A stretch of DNA of 24,000 bases from Nanobdellota archaeon (GCA_021813435.1 JAKAKR010000014.1:98889-122888), one strand, 5' to 3'; numbered from the stretch's first letter, positions 8,995 through 24,000 are shown. Made by a program: numbers and translations. Notes: generated by a model from the sequence alone, not told the origin.

Positions 8995-9595
8995 GAACCT
9001 CTCAGGCCTAAAGGCCTGAGTATCCTGTAAGAAATGTTTGTTCTCTTGCTCCACGGTTTGATTGTGCAATATAATTTTTTATAGATTCTGCAGTCACGTT
9101 TCCGACTGAGCGGAAAAATTTTCCTGGACTCCATAAGTGCCCAGTTCTAAAATAGTTTCTCAGCCATGGTTGTTTCTGAAAAAGTTTATAAGAAGTAAAG
9201 CCCTTAAGAAGGTTAAGCGCTTTGGAAACAGCAATGGTCGGTGGAATTTCCACAAATATATGGATGTGATCTTCCATGACTTCGAGTTCAAAGATTTGAA
9301 TTTTATAACGAAGCGCTGCTTCATTAAGGATTGCTTCGCAATCCTTTTTTATCCAAGGAAATTTGAAAATATCCCATGCATATTTTGGTTTCCAAACCAA
9401 ATGATAACTATTTTGCCTGACGCTGTGCGAAAAATTTGTTAATTCCATTTTGTTCGTCTCCGACGAACATAGCTCACGCTAACTTAGAGAGGTTAGTGCG
9501 TGACGCAAAAAATTCGTTCGTCACGCATTTTTTAATTTCAAAATAGAAAAAGTTATCCGTTACAGACTACAACTTGCCGTAAACGGCAAGGTATT
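8995..9595 (-). mobile_element. IS200/IS605-family insertion sequence (TnpA only), boundaries approximate
   Basis: A Y1 HUH transposase gene is flanked by GC-rich subterminal hairpins with identical TAAA loops: CTCAGGCC-TAAA-GGCCTGAG (9001-9020) and CTTGCCG-TAAA-CGGCAAG (9573-9590). Further hairpins lie at 9451-9469 and 9497-9527. No terminal inverted repeats were found, as expected for this family. Confidence 0.7.
9008..9448 (-). CDS. tnpA: IS200/IS605-family transposase TnpA (Y1 HUH)
   Basis: YHLVWKPKY..., HUH motif HIHIFVEIPP, and a C-terminal catalytic-Tyr region SVGNVTAESIKNYI. The 146-aa size is typical. Confidence 0.85.
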   Translation of the reverse strand: MELTNFSHSVRQNSYHLVWKPKYAWDIFKFPWIKKDCEAILNEAALRYKIQIFELEVMEDHIHIFVEIPPTIAVSKALNLLKGFTSYKLFQKQPWLRNYFRTGHLWSPGKFFRSVGNVTAESIKNYIAQSNRGAREQTFLTGYSGL

Positions 9596-12381: not shown

Positions 12382-12454
12382 AGCCCCGTAGTGTAGCGGC
12401 CAATCATAGGGGACTCTGGATCCTCTGACCCCAGTTCGAATCTGGGCGGGGCTA
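12382..12454 (+). tRNA. tRNA-Gln (anticodon CTG)
   Basis: Manual cloverleaf: acceptor AGCCCCG/CGGGGCT, D arm GTGT-AGCGGCCAA-TCAT (as in archaeal tRNA-Gln), anticodon stem GGGGA/TCCTC with loop CTCTGGA, T arm CCCAG-TTCGAAT-CTGGG, discriminator A. No CCA is encoded. Confidence 0.9.
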
Positions 12455-12570: not shown

Positions 12571-13728
12571 ATGGTACGACATGCATTTGCGTCGAACGGG
12601 AAGAGAGATATCCATAACCTCGAAGCTGAGTACGATAAGGCTTTTGAGAAGTTGGAGTCTTCTGAGAAATGGGTTTTTGAGAGCAATAGGGCTCTTATTA
12701 TAGAGTATCTGAGGGCTTGTAAAAAGGGACAGGCCAAGAGCGGTGGCAGGAATGTCAGGGTCGGAAAAAGCTCTTTATACCGTGTTTTAGGTGTATTGAG
12801 GTTATTGAGTGAGAAATGGCTTAAGAAAGATTTTGATGCAGCTACAGCCCAAGACTGGCAATTATTCTATGATAAGATGGAGGAAGATGAGTTCTTGAAT
12901 GAGAATGGGAAAAAGTTCAAGCAAGCGACAAAAGCCAAGAACTATAAGACCATAAGGAAATTCTTGAAATGGAGATTTGGCAATAACAGATCTTATCCAG
13001 ACATATGCGCTGACTGGGTCACGACAGAAGAGAAAAGCACAAAAGAGTATCTTACACGTCAAGAAGTTGAGAGGATGGTGCAAGCAGCTAACTCTACAAA
13101 GACTAAATGCATGATAATGATGCTATTTGATGGAGGATTCAGGATTGAAGAATTGGCTAACTTGAAATGGCCTGACGTAATTAAAGAGGAGGGCAGAAAT
13201 TATTATCGTGCAGATGTCCGTGCAGAGACTAGCAAAACTAAGAAATCAAGAAAAGTTTCTCTCTGGTTAGCGACTGATATGATTGAATCATATAAGAATT
13301 CATTGATAGCAGCGAAGAAATTTAATCCTTCAGGATTCTTATTTGATGCTAATTATGATGTATTGCGTCTTACTGTCAGAAGACTCGGAAGCAGGGTGTT
13401 GAATAAGAACATCTCTCCTCACACATTAAGGCATAGTTCAGCCACGTATTATGCATCAATAATTAAGACATATCAACAGTTCTGTTCTAGATATGGCTGG
13501 ACGCTGAGAAGCAATGCACCACAAGTCTATTTCCACTCCGTGGCTGACGATGAGATAGCAGAGCAGACAAGAGAACACGAAATCGCTAGATTCAAGACAG
13601 AATTCGAGAGACAGAAACTTCAGAACAGGCAGCTGCAAGACACTCTTGAAAAGATGAAGAAGGATCAAGAAAGCATGAGGGAAGAGATTCTGAAGAGTGT
13701 ACTCAAAGAATTAGGCACGACAAAATAA
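12571..13728 (+). CDS. int: Tyrosine recombinase / integrase
   Basis: Catalytic-domain motifs: LFDGGFRIEELANLKW (Arg I), HTLRHSSATYYAS (H-x-x-R), and a later Tyr region. Strong Shine-Dalgarno GGAGGA at 12559-12564. Position next to a tRNA. Confidence 0.85.
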   Translation: MVRHAFASNGKRDIHNLEAEYDKAFEKLESSEKWVFESNRALIIEYLRACKKGQAKSGGRNVRVGKSSLYRVLGVLRLLSEKWLKKDFDAATAQDWQLFYDKMEEDEFLNENGKKFKQATKAKNYKTIRKFLKWRFGNNRSYPDICADWVTTEEKSTKEYLTRQEVERMVQAANSTKTKCMIMMLFDGGFRIEELANLKWPDVIKEEGRNYYRADVRAETSKTKKSRKVSLWLATDMIESYKNSLIAAKKFNPSGFLFDANYDVLRLTVRRLGSRVLNKNISPHTLRHSSATYYASIIKTYQQFCSRYGWTLRSNAPQVYFHSVADDEIAEQTREHEIARFKTEFERQKLQNRQLQDTLEKMKKDQESMREEILKSVLKELGTTK

Positions 13729-14403: not shown

Positions 14404-16071
14404 TCATACACTTTTTATCCATGGAAATAATTGCGATTGCGGATTTTCTTCTTTATCTTTTACTGCCTGCTGCAATATTTTTTCATTTATTTTGTGAATT
14501 TCTTCTCTGGACTTAATCAAATTCTCTTTCGATAAAGTATTAGATTCACGCAATGCTCTAATGGTTTGCGGATAACCTTTTTCATCCTTTTTCAATATAT
14601 CAGTTTCTGCTAATTCATAACCCTCAACTTTCTTATGTAACCATAATGCATACGATCCAAGATCCAAACAATATGCTTCAAAAACATCTTTGGAAGTGTG
14701 TGTGAGATGTAGGTTTGAATGGATTAGATGGACTATCTTGAAATCTATTAAATCATTTAATTTGTCAAGCGTTTCTTTTTCTTCTTGTTTAGTCCCTTTA
14801 TTTACTAAAAATGCTGTCCTTTTGTTATATTTCGTGCAGAAATCGAATACCTCATTAAAATATACATCTAATTCTTTCTTCTTTGCGTATTTTGTCTCCA
14901 AATTCTTCTGCTTATCTAGGAATAGATTATGTGCAGCTTTGTTGATTACATGAAAATCAATTTTTGGAGTTTCCTTTGAGAAATCCATTTGAGAAACACA
15001 ATATACAAATAATTGAAGGAAATCTCTAGGCACTCCTCCGGAAGCCCACACCAATCTTTTGAATCCATTATCCGTAGCAACAAACAAATCTTGAGCATCC
15101 TTGATTTTGAACATGGAGCATATGTCACTTAAAATCTTCTGTAAAAAACTCTCTGTTTCATCAAATCTTTGTAGCAGAAAATCCAAATCAATTTTTTGTA
15201 AATCAGCACTTTCTTCAAGACCATGTGGAGCTCCATCAGATTCTCTTTCATATAATTTCGTACGATGAGATATGCTCGCTATTTTTAGATATGCTTTTTG
15301 ACCTTTGCATAATCTGAATAAATAGTCAATAACATGAGGTTGGTCTTCGACTTGAACATGATAAAAATCATCTAGCAATAAAAATAATGCACTCTGATTT
15401 AGATAAATTATTGTACTGCTTAAAGTTGACCTGTATGTATCGATATTTTTATAAAGAAAATCAATTTTTTTCATATTCAATTTTATTCTACTTTTAATTT
15501 CTTTAGTTGACGATTTTCCAGAAGATAAACTTGCACTCATCGAAGATCCAATTATATTTGCCTGTTCAGAAAATTGGGCATTGCTATTTTTAGATTCGGA
15601 TAATCCTTGCTCTAGATCTTGATCGTATTCTATCGGCAAATCCTTTAACGAATTCAGGTCAGCAATGTCTTTATTTAATGCGTTCACGATTTTATTCTTT
15701 TTACGTTTTCCGGATAAATTTAGAACAAAATGTTTTTTTGTTTGAACTTTATTCCTTAAGTCTTCAAATATTTTAATTAGATTGGCTATTAATAAATCTG
15801 GATATCTATGATCAGTGTATAGATTGTAATCTATAAATGTAGTAGCCACTTTTTTCCTCTCGGCATTTATTTTTAATGCAACCAAGAGAGTTGTTTTACC
15901 CGATCCTCTCCTCCCATAAATTACAGTATTACATTTTGTTTGAACATTATTCAAATTGTTATTGTAATCAATATATACTACTTCTCCAGACTTTTCTTCA
16001 GTATATCTAAATATCTCCTTGATTCTTACGGCTACAAGGTTAAGTCTTGTCTTCAAATCTTCGTTGTTCAT
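14404..16071 (-). CDS. P-loop NTPase (555 aa) with a long Walker A-Walker B spacer
   Basis: Walker A VIYGRRGSGKTTLL (aa 50-63) and Walker B FLLLDDFYH (aa 230-238), separated by about 170 aa that include a Ser-rich low-complexity stretch. SGGVPRDFL is sensor-like. It has its own TATA-like element about 30 nt upstream of ATG 16071. Confidence 0.7.
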   Translation of the reverse strand: MNNEDLKTRLNLVAVRIKEIFRYTEEKSGEVVYIDYNNNLNNVQTKCNTVIYGRRGSGKTTLLVALKINAERKKVATTFIDYNLYTDHRYPDLLIANLIKIFEDLRNKVQTKKHFVLNLSGKRKKNKIVNALNKDIADLNSLKDLPIEYDQDLEQGLSESKNSNAQFSEQANIIGSSMSASLSSGKSSTKEIKSRIKLNMKKIDFLYKNIDTYRSTLSSTIIYLNQSALFLLLDDFYHVQVEDQPHVIDYLFRLCKGQKAYLKIASISHRTKLYERESDGAPHGLEESADLQKIDLDFLLQRFDETESFLQKILSDICSMFKIKDAQDLFVATDNGFKRLVWASGGVPRDFLQLFVYCVSQMDFSKETPKIDFHVINKAAHNLFLDKQKNLETKYAKKKELDVYFNEVFDFCTKYNKRTAFLVNKGTKQEEKETLDKLNDLIDFKIVHLIHSNLHLTHTSKDVFEAYCLDLGSYALWLHKKVEGYELAETDILKKDEKGYPQTIRALRESNTLSKENLIKSREEIHKINEKILQQAVKDKEENPQSQLFPWIKSV

Positions 16072-16131: not shown

Positions 16132-16893
16132 CTAGGATACTATTCTTTCTATTTCTTTTGTTCTTTTTCTTATTGTTACTTCAATGATCCCGACTGTATT
16201 CGCTATTTGTCTTTGCGTGACTTTTGGTTTTCCAGCTAAATACAACGCCGCAGCTGCGATAGTCTCTGGTCTTTTGCCTTGCAAGGATTCTTGAACCTGT
16301 TCTGTCAAATCCAATGCCTTCTGTATTGCAGGTTGATCTAACTTCAGCTTATTTCCGAATCTTTCAACCAAATCCGAGGGTTTAAGATTTTCAGCCTGTA
16401 TATTCAAGTGTCTCTTCAAATGTTTATATGTCCTCAATAGAGTTGTTTTTGTCATACCTGAATGTAATGCTAGCTCCTTAGATATTTTCGGGGTTTTTGT
16501 GATTGTGCATGCTGCATAGATACAGGCATAGACGACACTATTGGTATCTCTTCCAATGCTGAAATTTGTCTTGATAGCTTCTTGTAGTAAGCTTCTGGTC
16601 TCTTTCACGACAGTATCTGTTAAATTGTGCCGAGATGCCGCCATCTCGAGCAGTTCATCGCTTTGTTTGATGTTCTTTTCTCTTGTCGTAAACAACCATT
16701 CGTATTTCACAATCTTTCCGTCTTGTCTTCTTGATCCTGCTGTCGCTACATCAGGTTGTTGTGCATAATGTTTCTTTGTAGTCTCGATGTATGGAGTATC
16801 GATTGTATCATCTAATACGAGGCCGCATGATACACACACTTCTTCATTGGCTATTATCCTTGTCTCATCGTTTCCGCATTCAGGACATCTCAT
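16132..16893 (-). CDS. tfb: Transcription initiation factor B (TFB/TFIIB) paralog, element-encoded
   Basis: N-terminal Zn ribbon CPECG...CVSCG. Two cyclin-like repeats (GRDTNSVVYACIYAAC...; GKRPETIAAAALYLAG...TQRQIANTVGIIEVTIRKRTKEI). ATG 16893 is preceded by GGGGGTGA; the track start at 16911 is TTG. Confidence 0.85.
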   Translation of the reverse strand: MRCPECGNDETRIIANEEVCVSCGLVLDDTIDTPYIETTKKHYAQQPDVATAGSRRQDGKIVKYEWLFTTREKNIKQSDELLEMAASRHNLTDTVVKETRSLLQEAIKTNFSIGRDTNSVVYACIYAACTITKTPKISKELALHSGMTKTTLLRTYKHLKRHLNIQAENLKPSDLVERFGNKLKLDQPAIQKALDLTEQVQESLQGKRPETIAAAALYLAGKPKVTQRQIANTVGIIEVTIRKRTKEIERIVS

Positions 16894-17149
16894 CAGCTTC
16901 ACCCCCTTCAACGAAGTATAGCAGCACAGGCATCACTTTCTTCTCAGTCAATTCCTTGATCCTGCTATCCAACTTCTCTTTACTCATGCATAACTCCATG
17001 ACATAATCTACTTCGGTCTCTGCGTTCTCGAATAGGTCTCTTATCGGTTTTTTCAAGTCTATCCTCTTTCTCCTGTCATCATGGAATATCTTGCCCTTTA
17101 CAGTGATGGCCTTATCCACTGTCATGACAGGCTTTTGGTAAGCTATCAT
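16880..17149 (-). CDS. Hypothetical protein (89 aa), first gene of the minus-strand unit with tfb
   Basis: ATG 17149 is preceded by GGAGGA. Its stop overlaps the tfb start by 14 nt. No family recognised. Confidence 0.5.
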   Translation of the reverse strand: MIAYQKPVMTVDKAITVKGKIFHDDRRKRIDLKKPIRDLFENAETEVDYVMELCMSKEKLDSRIKELTEKKVMPVLLYFVEGGEADEMS

Positions 17150-17551
17150 GGCGTTCCTCCTCTACTGTTCTACAGGACATGAGTATTAAGAAAAAAATGG
17201 TCAAATTGCTTGTGGAAGCAAATACATGCGCTTCCACCTTAGAGCCTTATGACTAAACATATCATAGAAGTTATTTACGTATTGTTTAATCATTTTAGTA
17301 CCCCTATACAGTAGATAAGGATTAGGTAGTATATAAATGTATATGCTCGATTACCGGAATATTTACGGATTTATCGAACTATATATGAAGATAAGACTTT
17401 ATTTATAAAGGAAAAATTTAAAAAGTGGTCGGGGCTAGTGATAAATTGGGGGTTCAATAAAGCACACGATTTCATCTTATTTACTAAATATCAATATTTA
17501 TGCCCTTTCCAAAGGATATGTTTCATTTGATTTACAGGAGATGCATTAGTT

Positions 17552-18064
17552 ATGAAAAACCAATCATTTGAAAATCTCATTAGAGATGGACGAGAATCAA
17601 TAAAGAATCATCAGATAATCGAGCCTACAAGAAATTACGACACATTCAATAATGCATTATTTTTCAATAAAAAACAGTTTTTGAATTGGTTACTTGATAA
17701 TTATCATGTTTTTGGAATAAGTAAGATATTGAAAGTCAGTGATTTTAGTCCGGAATTGATAGTTGAGACATATGATAAAACAATATTGAAGGTCGCTGTC
17801 GAGTTTTCTTCATTGAATTACAGATTAGTCAATGACTATGATATATATGACCCTAAAAGGGCGGATATAATAATAAGTTTCCTGCAACCGCATCAGGGCG
17901 TTAATGACTCTTTCATACCTATAATATCGTTATTTAAGGTTAAAGGACTATGCAGAGGCACAGATAGATTTGAAGCCGATTCCTTAGAGCTGACTGAATA
18001 TTTCAAGGAGTACATGCATACCGGCGTTAAACATCTTTATAGTGAAATTAACAGATTTAAATAA
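17552..18064 (+). CDS. Hypothetical protein (170 aa), first gene of the candidate defence operon
   Basis: ATG is preceded by AGGAG. The stop lies 1 nt before the next start. No family recognised; a PD-(D/E)xK-like pattern (SDF...ELIVE...KVAVEF) is too weak to call. Confidence 0.6.
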   Translation: MKNQSFENLIRDGRESIKNHQIIEPTRNYDTFNNALFFNKKQFLNWLLDNYHVFGISKILKVSDFSPELIVETYDKTILKVAVEFSSLNYRLVNDYDIYDPKRADIIISFLQPHQGVNDSFIPIISLFKVKGLCRGTDRFEADSLELTEYFKEYMHTGVKHLYSEINRFK

Positions 18065-18065
18065 A

Positions 18066-18890
18066 ATGACGATGGACATAAAAGAAGGAGTAAAGAACTG
18101 CACGCTATGCAATAAAAGTAGCAAATATCTTTTTAATTTAGGCAATCAACGGGTCTGTGATGATTGTTTTGTAAAATTTTATAAATCTCCGAATAAAATA
18201 GTCGCTACAGAGAAACCCATTAATGCACCAAGTAAATCACAGATTGCGACTCCGAATTACGTAAACTATTATGAGTTATTATTACAACAGTTGGATAAGA
18301 CCACGACTAACAGGGAATTACTCTCTTATCTGCCTAAATTTTATTTGATACTTTCTAAAATAATTACTGATCATAAAGCGGATTGGTATTCTAAAATGCT
18401 TGCTAATTGTGCTTTGTCTTATCTTGTAATAGAAAGCGATATAATCCCTGATAATAGCGCTACGGATTTGGGCTACATGGATGATTTATTCATATGCGCT
18501 TATGTTCTGAGGAACATCAGGGACAATGTTTCTCGAGATATAATATTATCCAATGTAGAAGACAAAAAAGAAAAAGAGAGTATATTTGACGATATCTATA
18601 ACGTCTTATCTCAATGTGATGAATATGTGGGTGATAAAAAGGACAGAATTCTGTCCTTTGTGGGTTTGAAAGAGTTCGATTCACTAGACTTCACATACTC
18701 CGAGGAGAAATCCCTCTCTATTAATTTGAGGAAGAAAAAACAACGATTGATATACGCAATGTTAGCTGTAAAACTCTCTCCGCTATTAAATAATCATTAT
18801 ACAGATAGAAAACATGTAAATTTCAAAGAGTATATCCTTGAACATAGGGATTTATTGGAATTAAAAAGATATATGGAGTTTGATAAATAA
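18066..18890 (+). CDS. Zn-ribbon + DUF1232-like domain protein (274 aa)
   Basis: CTLC...x15...CDDC (nt 18099-18167). ALSYLVIESDIIPDNSATDLGYMDDLFICAYVL resembles the DUF1232 (YkvA) signature Y.i.P.D.IPD....lGy.DD. ATG 18066 is preferred; the track start at 18042 is GTG and lies inside the upstream gene. Confidence 0.65.
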   Translation: MTMDIKEGVKNCTLCNKSSKYLFNLGNQRVCDDCFVKFYKSPNKIVATEKPINAPSKSQIATPNYVNYYELLLQQLDKTTTNRELLSYLPKFYLILSKIITDHKADWYSKMLANCALSYLVIESDIIPDNSATDLGYMDDLFICAYVLRNIRDNVSRDIILSNVEDKKEKESIFDDIYNVLSQCDEYVGDKKDRILSFVGLKEFDSLDFTYSEEKSLSINLRKKKQRLIYAMLAVKLSPLLNNHYTDRKHVNFKEYILEHRDLLELKRYMEFDK

Positions 18891-18893
18891 AAA

Positions 18894-19610
18894 ATGGCAT
18901 CATATTTGGAAATATTGGAAAATGCATCTCAGACGTATACTGGATTACGGAATGAATTAATCACCATAACTCCTAAATTCTTCAAATTGATACAAGATTT
19001 ATACGGAGAAGATATAGATTGGAAATCGAAATTCAAAATCAATTGCTGCTTGGCGCATTTTTCAATTATAAGTAACCAACAAAAATCTGAATCGATAAAT
19101 TATATTGAGGGTCTGTATTTATGCGCATATGTATTAAATCAGATATACCCCAAATATTCGGATTTAATCGAAAAGAATTGGGATAATGGGGGAACAGCCA
19201 AGGATGCAATTGCAAATACTCTGAAATTGATTGAAGACACGATAGTGTTGAAAAAACAAGACTTATTAGTATACTCCGGACTCAATAAATTTGATGAGAT
19301 GTCGAAGGACAAAGATGCATTCAAGATTCCGTCAGGTATAGATGATAAATTAGATCGCATATATAACCAAAACTTGGATTTAATGGTATTATTACATTCA
19401 GTTTTTTACATAGAAGGAACTAAACCTTCCGGAAGGAGATTACGGGATTATAAAGAACTATTCAGCAAGCATGAATGGGAAAGAGTGATAAGGATTATCC
19501 AGAATATTGAAATGCACGAATCAAGATTCGATAATAGTCATGAGATTGAATTAGAAAAGATAAAAAGAAGAGTTATACTTGAAATGGATGATGATTTAAT
19601 AATGGAGTAA
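18894..19610 (+). CDS. Diverged paralog of the preceding protein (238 aa), no Zn ribbon, degenerate DUF1232-like motif
   Basis: Collinear matches to the 18066 protein: PKFF/PKFY, DWKSK/DWYSK, NCCLAHF/NCALSYL, LCAYVLNQI/ICAYVLRNI, SGLNKFD/VGLKEFD. The D-IPD...G-DD residues are replaced by IISNQQKSESINYIEGL. Confidence 0.65.
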   Translation: MASYLEILENASQTYTGLRNELITITPKFFKLIQDLYGEDIDWKSKFKINCCLAHFSIISNQQKSESINYIEGLYLCAYVLNQIYPKYSDLIEKNWDNGGTAKDAIANTLKLIEDTIVLKKQDLLVYSGLNKFDEMSKDKDAFKIPSGIDDKLDRIYNQNLDLMVLLHSVFYIEGTKPSGRRLRDYKELFSKHEWERVIRIIQNIEMHESRFDNSHEIELEKIKRRVILEMDDDLIME

Positions 19611-19612
19611 AC

Positions 19613-21739
19613 ATGGAATCATTGAAAGATTATCAATGGGATACAAGATATAGCAGCGCTACACATAATCTAATAAAGGATTTTTTCATTCCGGCATTAT
19701 CTAGGTCAAGATATTATTACAGGATTGCAGGATACTTCTCATCCATGGCGATAGCAGCAGCTTTTCGAGGTATAAGTTCGTTTGTAGAAAATGGCGAGAA
19801 GATGTTCTTGATAGTTGGCAGCGAATTAACTGCGGACGATGTAAACGCAATAAATAAAGGAATACTGAAAGTCGATGAAATATTGACGAGAAAATGGGAA
19901 GATTGTTTCAAGGATTTTAATAACGATATAATAAAAAAAAGATTTGAATTATTATCTTGGTTAATTGCTAACGATAAACTGGAGATTCGTATAGGGATAA
20001 ATAAGGATGAATCAGGTAGGTATTTAACCGCTAACGAAGCCATATTCCACGAGAAAATTCTGATATTTGAAGATTATGACAAAAGTCAGATACAGGTAGA
20101 TGGATCTATTAATGAAACTTGGAGAGCTTGGAGAAAAAACAGGGAGTCATTTTGTGTTCATAAAAGTTGGGTTGAAGGCAATGATATATTCATCAAAACA
20201 GCTAAGGCAGAATTTGATAAAGTATGGTTAAGCAAAGATCCCACCTGTGAAGCTGTTGAACTTCCTGATGCAGTCAAAAATCGATTGTTGTCTATTACGC
20301 CAGCGCATAAACCAGAAATAGAGGATGAAGTTGATTTCTCGTTTGAAGAATTCGAAGAAGAGGAATCAAAAACAGTGACCCTAAGAAGATATCAATTAGA
20401 AGCAATAACAGCGTGGAATGATAATAATCATATAGGAGTTCTAGAGATGGCTACGGGCACAGGTAAGACGGTAACAGCGTTATGTGCAATTAAGAATCTT
20501 CCACTTAAAGGCAGGATGCTGATTATTGGTGTACCTCAAAAGGAATTAGCAGCCCAATGGGAAACACAATGTGAATCTGTATTTATAGATACACCTAAAC
20601 AAATTATACCTTGTCATAGCGACACGGATTGGAAATCGAATCTATCAAGGGAGATAAGGCAGTGTATCAGAAATGAATCTTTGGGGATTATTATCGCTGT
20701 ATTTAACACTATGCGTTCAGCGAAATTTCAAGATATTATTAAGAACATAATCGGCGATGCATATCTGATATTAGATGAGGTTCATGAACTCGGCAGTTTT
20801 GAGAATAGAAAAATGTTCCACATGTTTGATAATGTTAAATATAGGCTCGGATTGAGTGCAACACCGAGTAGAGTCTGGGATTCCGAGGGTGATGAGGCCA
20901 TACAAAAATTCTTTGGTGGCAAGCCGATTTTCGTGTGGGATATGGACAAAGCAATAAACCCCCCAGAAGGATATGAAAGATGTCTTTGCCCTTACAAATA
21001 TCATTTACATGAGTGTAGTCTTATTGATGATGAATCTGCGAAATATGAAGAATTGTCAAACAGGATAAACAGGAAAATAGCAACATTGATGTCACAAGGC
21101 AAGAAAATCAGCAGTATAGACGATGAACCTGCACTCAAGATGTTGTTATTTGAAAGAGCCAACTTAATCAAGGAATGTTTGGGAAAAGACGAAATACTTT
21201 CAGACATATTAGAGAAAAAGGATAATGAATTATTGAAGTGCCTTGTATATTGTAATGATGAGAAACATATGGATAAGGCATCAAGTATCATATCTGGGAA
21301 AGGTTTGAGTTGTCGAAAATTCTTCGGCCAGATGGATGAGGATGAAAGAGAGAGAGTCTTTGATTCGTTCACAAATAGCGATGTGCAATTTCTGGTAGCC
21401 ATAAAAATATTGGATCAAGGTATAGACTTGCCTATCTGTAATTCAGCAATCATACTTTCCAGTTCACAAAATCCTCGAGAATATGTTCAGAGGCGAGGTC
21501 GAATCCTCAGACTGCACAAGTCTAAGGAATATGCGATTGTGCATGACATAATCGTTTTTCCAAAAAAATATGCTGATTTGAAAACCGGCAAAGTAAAACT
21601 TGAAGTTTATGAGGCAAACCTTCTGAAAACTCAAATCAAGAGAATGGACATATTTATGGAAAATTCCCTCAATAAAGCCGAAAACTTTTTAAAAAAGCTT
21701 GAGTATGGAGATATTATAACAAATAGCCTTAAGGAATGA
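19613..21739 (+). CDS. HKD (PLD-family) nuclease domain fused to an SF2 (DEVH, res-subunit type) helicase
   Basis: N-terminal YRIAGYFSS and a single HKD motif FHEKILIFED...VDGSINET (His146 at nt 20048). Helicase motifs: MATGTGKT (nt 20447-20470), LILDEVH (20774-20785), LGLSATP, ILDQGIDLP, QRRGRILR. Confidence 0.85.
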   Translation: MESLKDYQWDTRYSSATHNLIKDFFIPALSRSRYYYRIAGYFSSMAIAAAFRGISSFVENGEKMFLIVGSELTADDVNAINKGILKVDEILTRKWEDCFKDFNNDIIKKRFELLSWLIANDKLEIRIGINKDESGRYLTANEAIFHEKILIFEDYDKSQIQVDGSINETWRAWRKNRESFCVHKSWVEGNDIFIKTAKAEFDKVWLSKDPTCEAVELPDAVKNRLLSITPAHKPEIEDEVDFSFEEFEEEESKTVTLRRYQLEAITAWNDNNHIGVLEMATGTGKTVTALCAIKNLPLKGRMLIIGVPQKELAAQWETQCESVFIDTPKQIIPCHSDTDWKSNLSREIRQCIRNESLGIIIAVFNTMRSAKFQDIIKNIIGDAYLILDEVHELGSFENRKMFHMFDNVKYRLGLSATPSRVWDSEGDEAIQKFFGGKPIFVWDMDKAINPPEGYERCLCPYKYHLHECSLIDDESAKYEELSNRINRKIATLMSQGKKISSIDDEPALKMLLFERANLIKECLGKDEILSDILEKKDNELLKCLVYCNDEKHMDKASSIISGKGLSCRKFFGQMDEDERERVFDSFTNSDVQFLVAIKILDQGIDLPICNSAIILSSSQNPREYVQRRGRILRLHKSKEYAIVHDIIVFPKKYADLKTGKVKLEVYEANLLKTQIKRMDIFMENSLNKAENFLKKLEYGDIITNSLKE

Positions 21740-21745
21740 ACTACC

Positions 21746-21907
21746 ATGGATGAAGATATTAATAGGATAATAAAAAAGGTTTTTTCTGAAGGAGATTCTA
21801 AGATAATAGAGGACATGTTAGATGTCGTGAACAAAGATATGTCAGACACTAAGATGGTCAAAAGGATGAATGACATAGATTTGATACTAAACGGTTACTT
21901 GGAATGA
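21746..21907 (+). CDS. Small hypothetical protein (53 aa)
   Basis: MDEDINRIIKKVFSEGDSKIIEDMLDVVNKDMSDTKMVKRMNDIDLILNGYLE. It starts 7 nt after the helicase stop, and its TGA overlaps the next ATG (ATGA at 21904-21907). Not in the ORF track (<60 aa). Confidence 0.45.
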   Translation: MDEDINRIIKKVFSEGDSKIIEDMLDVVNKDMSDTKMVKRMNDIDLILNGYLE

Positions 21908-23877
21908 TTGAATTCAAACTAATCAAAATAAGGATATATAATTTTGCATGTTATTATGGTAATAATGAGATAGATTTTCAAGTCAAATCAGATAAAAACA
22001 TCTTCTTGTTCAAACTTCCAAATGGATATGGAAAAACTAGTTTATTTCAGGCAATAAAATGGGGATTCTATGGAGAGAACATAGAATATTATAAAGATTC
22101 CAAGCAGGTGCATATAGATGAATTCCTGAATGACAGACTTAATCCGGACAAGGATTCTTGTTTTGTTGAAATCTTCTTTCAGTATGGACATCATAATTAT
22201 GAACTCAAAAGAACCTACACTCCGAGTGTTCGTAAATCCTCATTGTTAACATTATCCAAAGACAATAGAGAAATAGTAAAATTAGAGGATATCGAAGATG
22301 AAATTAATCAGATAATCCCGAAGAATTTTTCAGATTTCTTTATGTTCGACGGTGAGCAATTAAGCAAATTTACAACTGCTCAGAAAGATTTTCTATTCAT
22401 GGACAGCATACATCAACTGCTGGGGTTGAAACAATTACGGGTTCTGAGGGATGATTTGAGAAAATTAGAGGAAAGATATGAGAACAGGTTGGTGCAGCAG
22501 ACAGAGACCAACAAGGAAGTCGAGAAACGACAGAACATCATTAAAGGTTTGTTGGTTGACATAAAAAACTTTGAAACTAAAATCCAAAATAATCTCGCAA
22601 AGATTACTGAAAACGACAAAATCAAGGGAGGACTTGAGGATCAAAGGAAAGTATATGAAAATCTCCCAAAGGTTATGCAAGAGCTTGAAAAGATAAATGA
22701 AAAAATAAGAAGCAACGATAAAGAGATTAATCTAATAAGTAACAGGCTACAATCGAATTCAAAGAACCTTTTCGTATCTTTTATAAAATCCGATTTGATG
22801 AATTTAGTAACCACAAACATCGAGAAGATAGATGAACTAAAAGACGTCTGCGGACTAACTGATATGCAAGCTGAGACACAGATAAATAAAGAGAAAATAT
22901 TAAAGAAAAGTATCCCTGTATGCGATGTTTGCGGCCATAAACTAGATTCTGAAGAAAAGAAAAATCTAGAAGTAGAACAGGAGAGAATTCATCAGTCCTT
23001 GAAGCTATTTCATCAAAATAAGAATCAACGTGATGATATACAAAATGAGAATCAATTATATACTTCGTTCTCGAATTTAGTCAAAGATTATGATTTTCAG
23101 AAAGACTTAGATGATTTGAAGGGATTAAACCTAAAACAAGGTATTTTATTAAAGGAAAAGAAGGATTTGGACAAAGAAAGCCAACGAGAAGAATACGGAA
23201 GCTTATCGACAATAAACAGGCAAATAGGTTTATTGGATGAGGAAAATTCTACATTGCGAGCTGATAATAAGACGCTAGAATTAAGAATTCGTAAAACCAA
23301 AGAGGAAAAGGACGAGGTCACGAAGGAGATAAAGAGATTTGGCCATGATGATAAGATATTCAGCAAAACAACGACTTTGGCGAGTACGGCAGGTAAATAT
23401 GTTAAGTTGCTTGATGAGGCGCTAGAATTAGGCACACAAACTAAGAGGATGTCTATATTGAAAAAGTCCAATGAACTATTTAATGCCATTACCAACAAAC
23501 CGGAAGAATACCTCGGGTTGGATTTTGAAAACGATTCAAGTTTTTCCTTTGTCATAAAAACCAAGGACAATAGGAAAGTAACTAATCCATCTAAGGGCGA
23601 AAAACAAGTGATGGCTATGAGTTTCTTGTTAGGCTTAAATCAATACACAGGGATTAATAACGTAATACTTATGGATACTCCTGTGGCAAGCTTGGATGAT
23701 GTTCACAGTGCCGGCATCGGTACTGCATTGTCTCATCTGAAGAATCAAGTCATTTTCTTAGCCCAACCTGTTGAATTAAGCGGAGACATTCTCAAAAATA
23801 TGAAACCTGGAATCGCTAAGGAATTCGTCGTAGAAAGACATGATTATAAATCAACCATAATTGAGGAAACAAAATGA
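21904..23877 (+). CDS. DndD/Rad50-like ABC (SMC-type) ATPase with a central zinc hook
   Basis: N-terminal IRIYNFACY...LPNGYGKTSLFQAI (Walker A, nt 22021-22041). FFMFDGEQL (DndD-like). About 400 aa of K/E/L-rich predicted coiled coil with CDVC at its midpoint (aa 340-343, nt 22921-22932). Signature-like GEKQVMAMSFLLGL and Walker B VILMDTPVASLDD. Confidence 0.8.
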   Translation: MIEFKLIKIRIYNFACYYGNNEIDFQVKSDKNIFLFKLPNGYGKTSLFQAIKWGFYGENIEYYKDSKQVHIDEFLNDRLNPDKDSCFVEIFFQYGHHNYELKRTYTPSVRKSSLLTLSKDNREIVKLEDIEDEINQIIPKNFSDFFMFDGEQLSKFTTAQKDFLFMDSIHQLLGLKQLRVLRDDLRKLEERYENRLVQQTETNKEVEKRQNIIKGLLVDIKNFETKIQNNLAKITENDKIKGGLEDQRKVYENLPKVMQELEKINEKIRSNDKEINLISNRLQSNSKNLFVSFIKSDLMNLVTTNIEKIDELKDVCGLTDMQAETQINKEKILKKSIPVCDVCGHKLDSEEKKNLEVEQERIHQSLKLFHQNKNQRDDIQNENQLYTSFSNLVKDYDFQKDLDDLKGLNLKQGILLKEKKDLDKESQREEYGSLSTINRQIGLLDEENSTLRADNKTLELRIRKTKEEKDEVTKEIKRFGHDDKIFSKTTTLASTAGKYVKLLDEALELGTQTKRMSILKKSNELFNAITNKPEEYLGLDFENDSSFSFVIKTKDNRKVTNPSKGEKQVMAMSFLLGLNQYTGINNVILMDTPVASLDDVHSAGIGTALSHLKNQVIFLAQPVELSGDILKNMKPGIAKEFVVERHDYKSTIIEETK

Positions 23878-24000
23878 AGATAGAAGAATTTATAGACGCT
23901 GGAAATATAAAATTTAGGAGCGCCTATAGAGATTCTATGTATTTCGTAATCAAGGAAAAAGATGATACGGGTTTGCTTGTCGGAATGAGTGAAATGTTTT
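23874..24000 (+). CDS. Hypothetical protein, 5' fragment (continues beyond the window)
   Basis: The ATG overlaps the ATPase stop (ATGA at 23874-23877). The open frame MKIEEFIDAGNIKFRSAYRDSMYFVIKEKDDTGLLVGMSEMF runs to the window end. Confidence 0.5.
   Translation, partial: MKIEEFIDAGNIKFRSAYRDSMYFVIKEKDDTGLLVGMSEMF

Follow-up and report, generated by a model that had tools for sequence, protein, structure and literature searches.

The seven-gene operon and its Pbe core

The 24,000-nt stretch of DNA considered here (the window; Nanobdellota archaeon, GCA_021813435.1, JAKAKR010000014.1:98889-122888) ends in an operon of plus-strand genes, which a first-pass annotation made from the sequence alone had proposed as an undescribed defence system on an integrated element. 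Part of contig DAICMW010000003.1 (assembly GCA_027374575.1; locus L002) has the same sequence as the window, and this contig supplied the sequence past the window end; L-numbers denote the compared loci, L001, L002 and L004 being copies of the window element and L088 the locus of Methanococcoides burtonii. An ORF (open reading frame) check recovered all seven annotated ORFs: an ORFan (gene 1), two paralogs of DUF1232 type (genes 2 and 3) and the four genes of a Pbe system (genes 4-7). Gaps of 1, 3, 2 and 6 nt separate genes 1-5, and ATGA overlaps of 4 nt join genes 5/6 and 6/7, a spacing that agrees with the annotation and supports a single coupled operon of defence-type genes. The seventh ORF is indeed cut by the window end, but the operon, annotated as having at least seven genes, comprises exactly seven when the contig is read further, the next gene (Vsr) lying on the opposite strand. 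A tRNA-Gln and a tyrosine integrase adjoin, in line with the integrated-element setting that had been proposed.

Gene 4 (19613-21739) encodes a 708-aa protein in which an HKD (PLD-family) nuclease is fused to an SF2 helicase, as had been annotated. Pfam recognises the PLDc_2, ResIII and Helicase_C domains, PADLOC identifies residues 3-691 as PbeA (E 5.5e-199), and the NCBIfam model TIGR04095 (dnd_restrict_1, "DNA phosphorothioation system restriction enzyme") matches with E 1e-102, below that model's cutoff. A genome scan with PbeA alone returned no loci; an alignment-based PbeA scan did. Across an alignment of 38 homologs the single HKD motif, with the pattern HxK(x)4D(x)9GSxN, is invariant at H146, K148, D154, G164, S165 and N167, and the GTGKT and DEVH motifs are likewise invariant.

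Gene 5 (21746-21907; 53 aa), which starts 6 nt past PbeA and overlaps the following gene, matches no PADLOC model; this is expected, since PbeB is a fast-evolving small protein (PMC10853773). The gene is kept in the clade, a two-sequence hidden Markov model finding it in L008, L088-L090, L101, L104 and L106 with E 1e-8 to 1e-21, and the alignment with its L007 counterpart reads MDEDINRIIKKVF...MLDVVN vs DDDIKRIINKVF...MLDVVN. Position and clade conservation together point to PbeB.

The product of gene 6 (21904-23877; 657 aa) matches PbeC over its full length (PADLOC E 3.1e-232), the next best PADLOC families being DndD (1.7e-47) and LmuB (8e-25). Its annotation as a DndD/Rad50-type ABC ATPase with a zinc hook is borne out by AAA_23/SMC_N ABC ATPase similarity (Pfam AAA_23 E 4e-9), a Walker A motif LPNGYGKT (K44) and a CDVC motif at the coiled-coil midpoint. 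Compared with DndD proper (NCBIfam TIGR03185) it scores 139.5 bits and does not reach the cutoff of 245.85, the CxxC hook being present. The hook is CxxC in the close clade, i.e., loci whose PbeA is 51-65% identical, and CxC in at least 30 distant PbeC proteins adjoining PbeA; second, DndD-like ATPases in distant Pbe loci have no Cys pair. Judged from these alignments, the CxxC spacing of the clade is a variant of the CxC hook, in a PbeC that is highly divergent (phmmer E 1e-37 or weaker against the PbeC proteins of distant loci). The arrangement resembles DndFGH and the Lamassu/Rad50-type SMC systems in using a coiled-coil ABC ATPase to link DNA sensing with a nuclease effector. Unlike those, it has no DndF, DndG or DndH, the LmuB match is far below that to PbeC, and no protein of the locus matches LmuA among the PADLOC models, in accordance with the annotated lack of an LmuA-type effector.

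Gene 7 (132 aa) occupies 23874-24000 in the window with its first 42 codons and ends at window-equivalent 24272 (full length at L001/L002 11971-12369). PADLOC gives a weak match to PbeD (E 0.0025), and a profile built from eight orthologs of the clade matches, profile against profile, the proteins whose genes directly follow CxC-type pbeC at 29 distant loci (hhalign probability 94.5%, E 7e-8, 102 columns), proteins that themselves have no Pfam or PADLOC match. Membership in PbeD therefore draws on synteny, the hhalign result and one weak PADLOC match, and we assign it with moderate rather than strong confidence. In L089 (14248-15165) PbeD is extended at its C-terminus by a Schlafen/AlbA_2 domain (Pfam E 3.5e-19; PDB SLFN11 E 5e-5), and this extension of one ortholog gave the sole match of PbeD to the PDB.

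By sequence, genes 4-7 are thus identified as pbeABCD in the canonical A-B-C-D order. Pbe, named by Xiong et al. in 2019 (PMC6459918), is one of a small number of defence systems whose first demonstration was in archaea. Whether it acts by cleavage or by a replication block is disputed. The pbeABCD genes of Haloterrigena jeotgali give ~10^4-fold protection against virus SNJ1, for which all four genes are needed, and block viral DNA replication (PMC6459918). The present locus shares with PbeABCD of H. jeotgali A29 the same four proteins (HKD+SF2 helicase, ~50-66-aa protein, DndD-like ABC ATPase, ~130-150-aa protein), their order, a single transcription unit and an archaeal host. Krishnan et al. 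(2024) equate Pbe with the "CxC ABC ATPase-DndE" system, in which PbeA is the HKD+SF2 protein, PbeB the fast-evolving small protein, PbeC the Zn-hook ABC ATPase and PbeD the DndE cognate (PMC10853773).

Given these matches, the claim of a combination outside all named systems fails. The view of a categorically new seven-gene system, unrelated to any named one, could point to genes 1-3, which match no PADLOC model and include an ORFan, and the assignment to a named system indeed covers four of the seven genes and not these three. Those four, however, belong to Pbe, with PADLOC E down to 1e-232, and stand in canonical order, and the ortholog in M. burtonii is already among the 553 PbeAC pairs catalogued in 2019 by Xiong et al. 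(PMC6459918); we consider this view refuted. Novelty fails for the core, as PbeABCD of the methylase-linked kind is already catalogued. What is possibly new is a clade-specific, extended Pbe with a conserved DUF1232 pair and one ORFan.

The cytosine methylase next to the operon

Just past the window end, Vsr is followed by a gene for a 578-aa C5 DNA methylase (L001/L002 12861-14597; Pfam E 4e-39); the annotated absence of methyltransferase motifs is true within the window but ends just past its cut edge. The protein keeps motifs I (FCGAGG; FxGxG), IV (PC), VI (ENV) and VIII (QNRLR; QxRxR). Its ortholog (phmmer E 1e-109 to 1e-213) adjoins PbeD in 7/7 close-clade loci with downstream sequence (the window element, L008, L088, L089, L090, L101/L102 and L104), where it sits on either strand and where Vsr is present in six. 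The C-terminal ~210 aa (residues ~363-578) are an extension that matches no family and could be a target-recognition or reader domain, and the orthologs are of similar length (535-578 aa).

Genes of the dnd type were found neither within 10 kb on either side of the operon nor anywhere on the ~21-kb element. The lack of adjacent dndCDEA is not disqualifying for Pbe, since 320 of the 553 catalogued PbeAC pairs, more than half, have no dnd neighbours (PMC6459918). In the supplementary table of Xiong et al. the M. burtonii locus is listed with PbeA at 1609589-1611736, a methyltransferase (MTase, 1614324-1616033) as "existing" and DndC/DndD as "non-existing" (PMC6459918), and the lineage had therefore been catalogued already as a solitary, methylase-linked PbeAC. 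The locus thus differs from that of H. jeotgali in having, instead of dndCDEA, a long C5 methylase and Vsr, and in its three additional coupled upstream genes. CxC systems with cytosine methylases in place of phosphorothioate (PT) genes have been described (PMC10853773). With these it shares the HKD-SF2 helicase, the small protein, the Zn-hook ATPase, with a Cys-based hook midway along a coiled coil of ~400 residues, the small, putatively DNA-binding protein and the C5 methylase; it differs in the hook motif, which is CxxC instead of CxC, and in the accessory proteins, which are of DUF1232 type in genes 2-3 and an "MTaX1" domain in the published methylase-linked versions.

Since the methylase is adjacent in all seven related loci and dnd genes are missing, the simplest reading is that the locus represents a restriction-modification (RM)-like Pbe variant based on 5-methylcytosine (m5C), in which m5C would replace PT as the self-mark. 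With its fixed methylase partner the clade is a compact case that suits the question of an m5C self-mark, and one ortholog resides in M. burtonii, which is cultured and genetically characterised.

The alternative that this is a canonical Pbe sensing PT produced by dnd or ssp genes at another genomic site, with methylase and Vsr unrelated to it, appears improbable to us. It is in keeping with the dependence of the only tested Pbe system on DndCDEA (PMC6459918), and the sequence surveyed extends ±10 kb around the operon; moreover, in a metagenome contig (P0141) a fused DUF1232 protein precedes PbeABCD and DndB-DndC-DndD, indicating that an extended Pbe can be PT-linked. Nonetheless, the orthologous methylase stays next to the operon in every one of the seven loci despite changes of strand and position, the ~21-kb element is devoid of dnd genes, the published record for M. 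burtonii shows no DndCD near the locus, and an element moving between hosts cannot depend on the dnd genes of a host.

The m5C reading follows the logic of Type I/III RM combined with Dcm-Vsr, where DNA marked by a methylase counts as self, a helicase-nuclease acts on DNA lacking the mark and Vsr makes up for the deamination of m5C; in Escherichia coli, Vsr-type repair occurs alongside Dcm methylation. It differs from Type I/III RM in needing a Rad50-like ATPase with a DndE-like partner and in using an HKD rather than a PD-(D/E)xK nuclease, and neither a methylase-nuclease complex nor a specificity subunit is evident at this locus.

The DUF1232 pair and gene 1 upstream of pbeA

Genes 2 and 3 had been annotated as DUF1232-like paralogs, one with a Zn ribbon, and both statements were upheld. 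Gene 2 (18066-18890; 274 aa) exceeds the Pfam cutoff for DUF1232 (PF06803; E 1.6e-5, 25 bits vs 23) and carries an N-terminal Zn ribbon of the form CxxC-x15-CxxC (C12/C15/C31/C34) ahead of a soluble, all-helical DUF1232-type core; its AlphaFold2 (AF2) model is all-helical, with a core pLDDT of 70-92 (residues ~80-200), and has no fold match in the PDB. Gene 3 (18894-19610; 238 aa) is a paralog of gene 2 (BLASTP E 1e-12) that lacks the N-terminal extension and has no Pfam match of its own. It shares 31-37% identity with the gene immediately preceding PbeA in L005, L007, L088, L089 and L090, and its orthologs in L005, L007 and L089 carry precomputed DUF1232 matches.

Typical DUF1232 (PF06803; YkvA-type) proteins are small and membrane-associated. 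The present relatives differ in being soluble, 220-350 aa long, linked to helicase-nucleases, and equipped with a further helical region at the C-terminus and with N-termini that bind nucleic acids. A role as membrane anchors was considered and rejected, no hydrophobic or transmembrane segment being found (maximum Kyte-Doolittle 19-residue window 1.06).

In every close-clade locus with upstream sequence the DUF1232 pair immediately precedes PbeA, coupled to it or overlapping it (L005/L103, L007, L088, L089/L105, L090, L099, L101/L102 and L104); the sequence of L100 has room for only the gene 3-type copy and that of L008 for only the end of that copy. The eight-gene neighbourhood is conserved in the close clade. 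No homolog of the pair was found within 10 kb in 79 loci whose PbeA is at most 35% identical. In L106 a 534-aa protein just before PbeA represents a gene 2::gene 3 fusion in the same order, and the protein of contig P0141 is a 456-aa fusion of the same kind; these fusions indicate that the two genes probably act as one unit, which occurs in PT-linked Pbe too.

In a group with ~42% identical PbeA, the coupled upstream gene encodes a protein of 996-1107 aa (L097 4001-7324, L098 5014-8004), the 1107-aa copy of L097 showing multiple CxxC pairs near its N-terminus and, in a search of seven sequences, a weak similarity to the DUF1232 core (E 1.6e-6). This could mean that PbeA had a Zn-ribbon/helical partner encoded ahead of it before the DUF1232 pair arose.

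The association extends beyond the close clade. While a word-indexed search returned only two other gene 2 homologs and no gene 3 homolog, an exhaustive profile search gave 456 family representatives at E<=1e-3, many of ~140 aa, and the signature helix-loop-helix (IPD...G.DD) was present in 72 of 78 sampled relatives. Two alignments of the family were too diverse for pattern scanning. A second scan yielded 20 metagenome loci with DUF1232 relatives, and Pbe genes were adjacent in 14 of them. Besides the upstream pair, a second arrangement places a single DUF1232 protein after PbeD (L110, L112, L114 and L115) and a third places it divergently from PbeA (L113 and L117); that the linkage survives rearrangement argues for a functional tie, and we regard the DUF1232-Pbe association as well supported by gene neighbourhoods, as an accessory to a known system whose function we infer.

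The domains fused to DUF1232 relatives are mostly nucleic-acid binders and comprise Zn ribbons, a C2H2 finger (L112), MarR, SLFN/AlbA_2 and HEAT/LRV repeats. In L113 (7893-9833, plus strand) the gene divergent from a PbeA-PbeC pair encodes a 647-aa protein that combines a DUF1232 core with the methyl-DNA-binding winged helix known from the C-terminus of DpnI (Pfam E 1.4e-28). Other relatives keep different company. In L107 (1778-5027) the gene for a UvrD helicase of 944 aa, which includes a PD-(D/E)xK nuclease domain, is followed and overlapped by that for a 141-aa core-only DUF1232 protein, and in L111 a relative sits with MgsA. A six-gene operon in L091 (9001-14911) and L092 (4604-10514) is led by a 224-aa DUF1232 protein, followed by proteins of 343 and 136 aa, an SF2 helicase (482 aa), a 331-aa protein and a radical SAM protein (451 aa), and adjoins Cas4-like/DUF2779 and type IV secretion system (T4SS) genes; it is possibly another uncharacterised defence operon.

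A broader interpretation, which we advance tentatively and at somewhat less than even odds, is that the soluble DUF1232 subfamily constitutes an undescribed, recurrent accessory module of helicase-nuclease motors, acting as a hetero- or pseudo-dimer. Its variable N-terminus (Zn ribbon, C2H2, MarR or DpnI-type reader) would read DNA or its modification and gate the motor, across the three Pbe arrangements and likewise beside the UvrD-PD-(D/E)xK protein and the SF2 helicase with radical SAM, and in the present Pbe lineage the self-mark would have switched from PT to 5-methylcytosine. The pair is a candidate for a missing component of Pbe, the DNA- and methyl-DNA-binding fusions suggesting where modification or target recognition may reside, and Pbe models of two or four genes undercount the system in this lineage. 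No mention of DUF1232 was found in PMC6459918, in PMC10853773 and one supplementary file, or in the other defence literature searched; the pair may have been described earlier under another name, and MTaX1 may correspond to genes 1-3 or to the methylase extension.

The variable, sensor-like N-termini of the family (HEAT/LRV repeats, Zn ribbons) would also suit the recognition of a trigger, as expected if PbeB, possibly along with the DUF1232 pair, restrained PbeA until infection freed it to cut the cell's own DNA. Such a suicide mode was proposed as an alternative by Krishnan et al. 2024 (PMC10853773) and agrees with the intact HKD catalytic residues and with the fast evolution of the small protein. 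Against it, the strict linkage to a methylase is more simply explained by the marking of self and non-self, and a PT-modified virus escapes Pbe, which points to discrimination between DNAs (PMC6459918). We consider abortive infection an improbable mode of action for this operon.

Gene 1 (17552-18064; 170 aa), 1 nt ahead of gene 2, is confined to the copies of this element (L001, L002 and L004). It has no significant match in Pfam, NCBIfam, PADLOC, PHROGs or the PDB and no relative in plasmids, phages, metagenome contigs or other Pbe loci, forming a singleton cluster, and a single-sequence AF2 model was unusable (pLDDT 36.7). That it might be a split-off N-terminal domain of the longer gene 2-type proteins was rejected, as it shows no similarity to 151 family members. 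Elsewhere its position is taken by Vsr, an integrase or unrelated genes, and gene 1 is treated here as a putative lineage-specific add-on rather than a defining part of the system.

Proposed mode of action and the mobile element

Considering genes and neighbourhood together, we read the operon as a Pbe-type, DNA-modification-dependent defence module carried as cargo by a ~21-kb conjugative-type element at an archaeal tRNA-Gln (rough probability 0.68). The 578-aa C5 methylase would mark the DNA of host and element, and Vsr would mend the T:G mismatches that arise from m5C deamination. Following published models, PbeC would dimerise through its zinc hook in the manner of Rad50 and, together with the small DNA-binding PbeD, load onto DNA and scan it. 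PbeA would act as both motor and effector, its SF2 helicase translocating on DNA and its single-HKD domain, active as a dimer, nicking or cutting unmarked incoming DNA or blocking its replication, with PbeB as a small regulator. Genes 2 and 3 would supply a soluble heterodimeric accessory unit, an adaptor whose N-terminal Zn ribbon targets or gates PbeA on DNA.

Several points weigh against this interpretation. The methylase and Vsr could be an independent orphan pair travelling with the operon, and dnd or ssp genes may lie elsewhere in the genome, the search for them covering ±10 kb of contig. PbeD, whose RHH (ribbon-helix-helix)/DndE fold is putative, has no sequence match to DndE structures or to Pfam. 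Gene 3 may be a degenerate partner of gene 2 here and the pair partly decayed: at residues ~56-76 the signature IPDDLIPD...G(Y/F)(L/I)DD, kept in 5/5 orthologs, is lost and the region reads I----ISNQQKSESINYIEG. The DUF1232 module itself is not specific to Pbe, as its UvrD-PD-(D/E)xK, SF2 plus radical SAM and MgsA partners indicate. Finally, Xiong et al. leave open that solitary PbeABCD may be inactive, and the Pbe system that was tested gave no visible cleavage of viral DNA, the nuclease step being contested (PMC6459918).

The candidate integration site of the element is a tRNA-Gln(CTG) gene (12382-12454, plus strand; ARAGORN), where the GC content drops from 45% to 34.6% and which is followed by a tyrosine integrase (12571-13728, plus strand; PF00589 Phage_integrase). 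The last 14 nt of the tRNA gene (TCTGGGCGGGGCTA, window 12441-12454) recur once 21.4 kb downstream (L002 21941-21954, window-equivalent 33844-33857), with 1.6e-4 matches expected by chance; the two repeats are candidate attL and attR sites bracketing an integrated conjugative-type element of ~21 kb. Besides the integrase, the operon, Vsr and the methylase, it carries a NikA/MobC-like gene, an Orc/Cdc6-like ATPase, TFB, a VirB4/TraC-like ATPase, a TrbC-like pilin and two Holliday-junction-resolvase-like genes (Endonuc_Holl).

With an integrase, a VirB4/TraC-like ATPase and a TrbC-like pilin around the operon, a DUF1232-helicase operon in a similar T4SS setting in L091 and the L005 homolog adjoining an integrase, the block might instead serve the element, either as a module for RM-like addiction or stabilisation or in combat with rival elements. 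The operon has its closest relatives in M. burtonii and in an uncultured Methanosarcinales archaeon; these relatives and the TFB gene on the element mark the host as archaeal. In M. burtonii the same eight-gene block is surrounded by housekeeping genes (mtrD/E, moeA), and transfer genes are missing within 10 kb of it, which implies that the Pbe module is not part of the transfer machinery. We judge service to the element very unlikely as an explanation; it concerns the beneficiary, moreover, and would be compatible with the same molecular mechanism.

The region ahead of gene 1, annotated as a 400-nt AT-rich control region, is indeed a divergent intergenic region of 402 nt (17150-17551), separating a minus-strand operon (89-aa ORF, TFB and Orc-like gene) from the Pbe operon. 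It is not specially AT-rich, with a GC content of 32.3% that compares with 34.1% in the operon and is typical of the island as a whole (34.6%). TATA-like octamers at 17330, 17402 and 17417 and a GGAG 10 nt ahead of the first ATG suggest that it contains the promoter region of the Pbe operon. The TFB gene (16132-16911, minus strand; TFIIB repeat E 4.8e-24, Zn ribbon) encodes a transcription initiation factor paralog, is divergent from the Pbe operon and is overlapped by the 89-aa ORF (16880-17149, minus strand). At 14404-16071 (minus strand) lies the gene for a 555-aa ORC-CDC6-like P-loop ATPase (Pfam E 2.6e-12) with a weak PADLOC match to mad8 of MADS (E 2e-6), which could be the replication initiator of the element or another defence-type NTPase. 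In the host part of the window, a 146-aa protein encoded at 9008-9448 (minus strand) clusters with proteins that JGI names "putative transposase" and looks like a TnpA of IS200/IS605 type.

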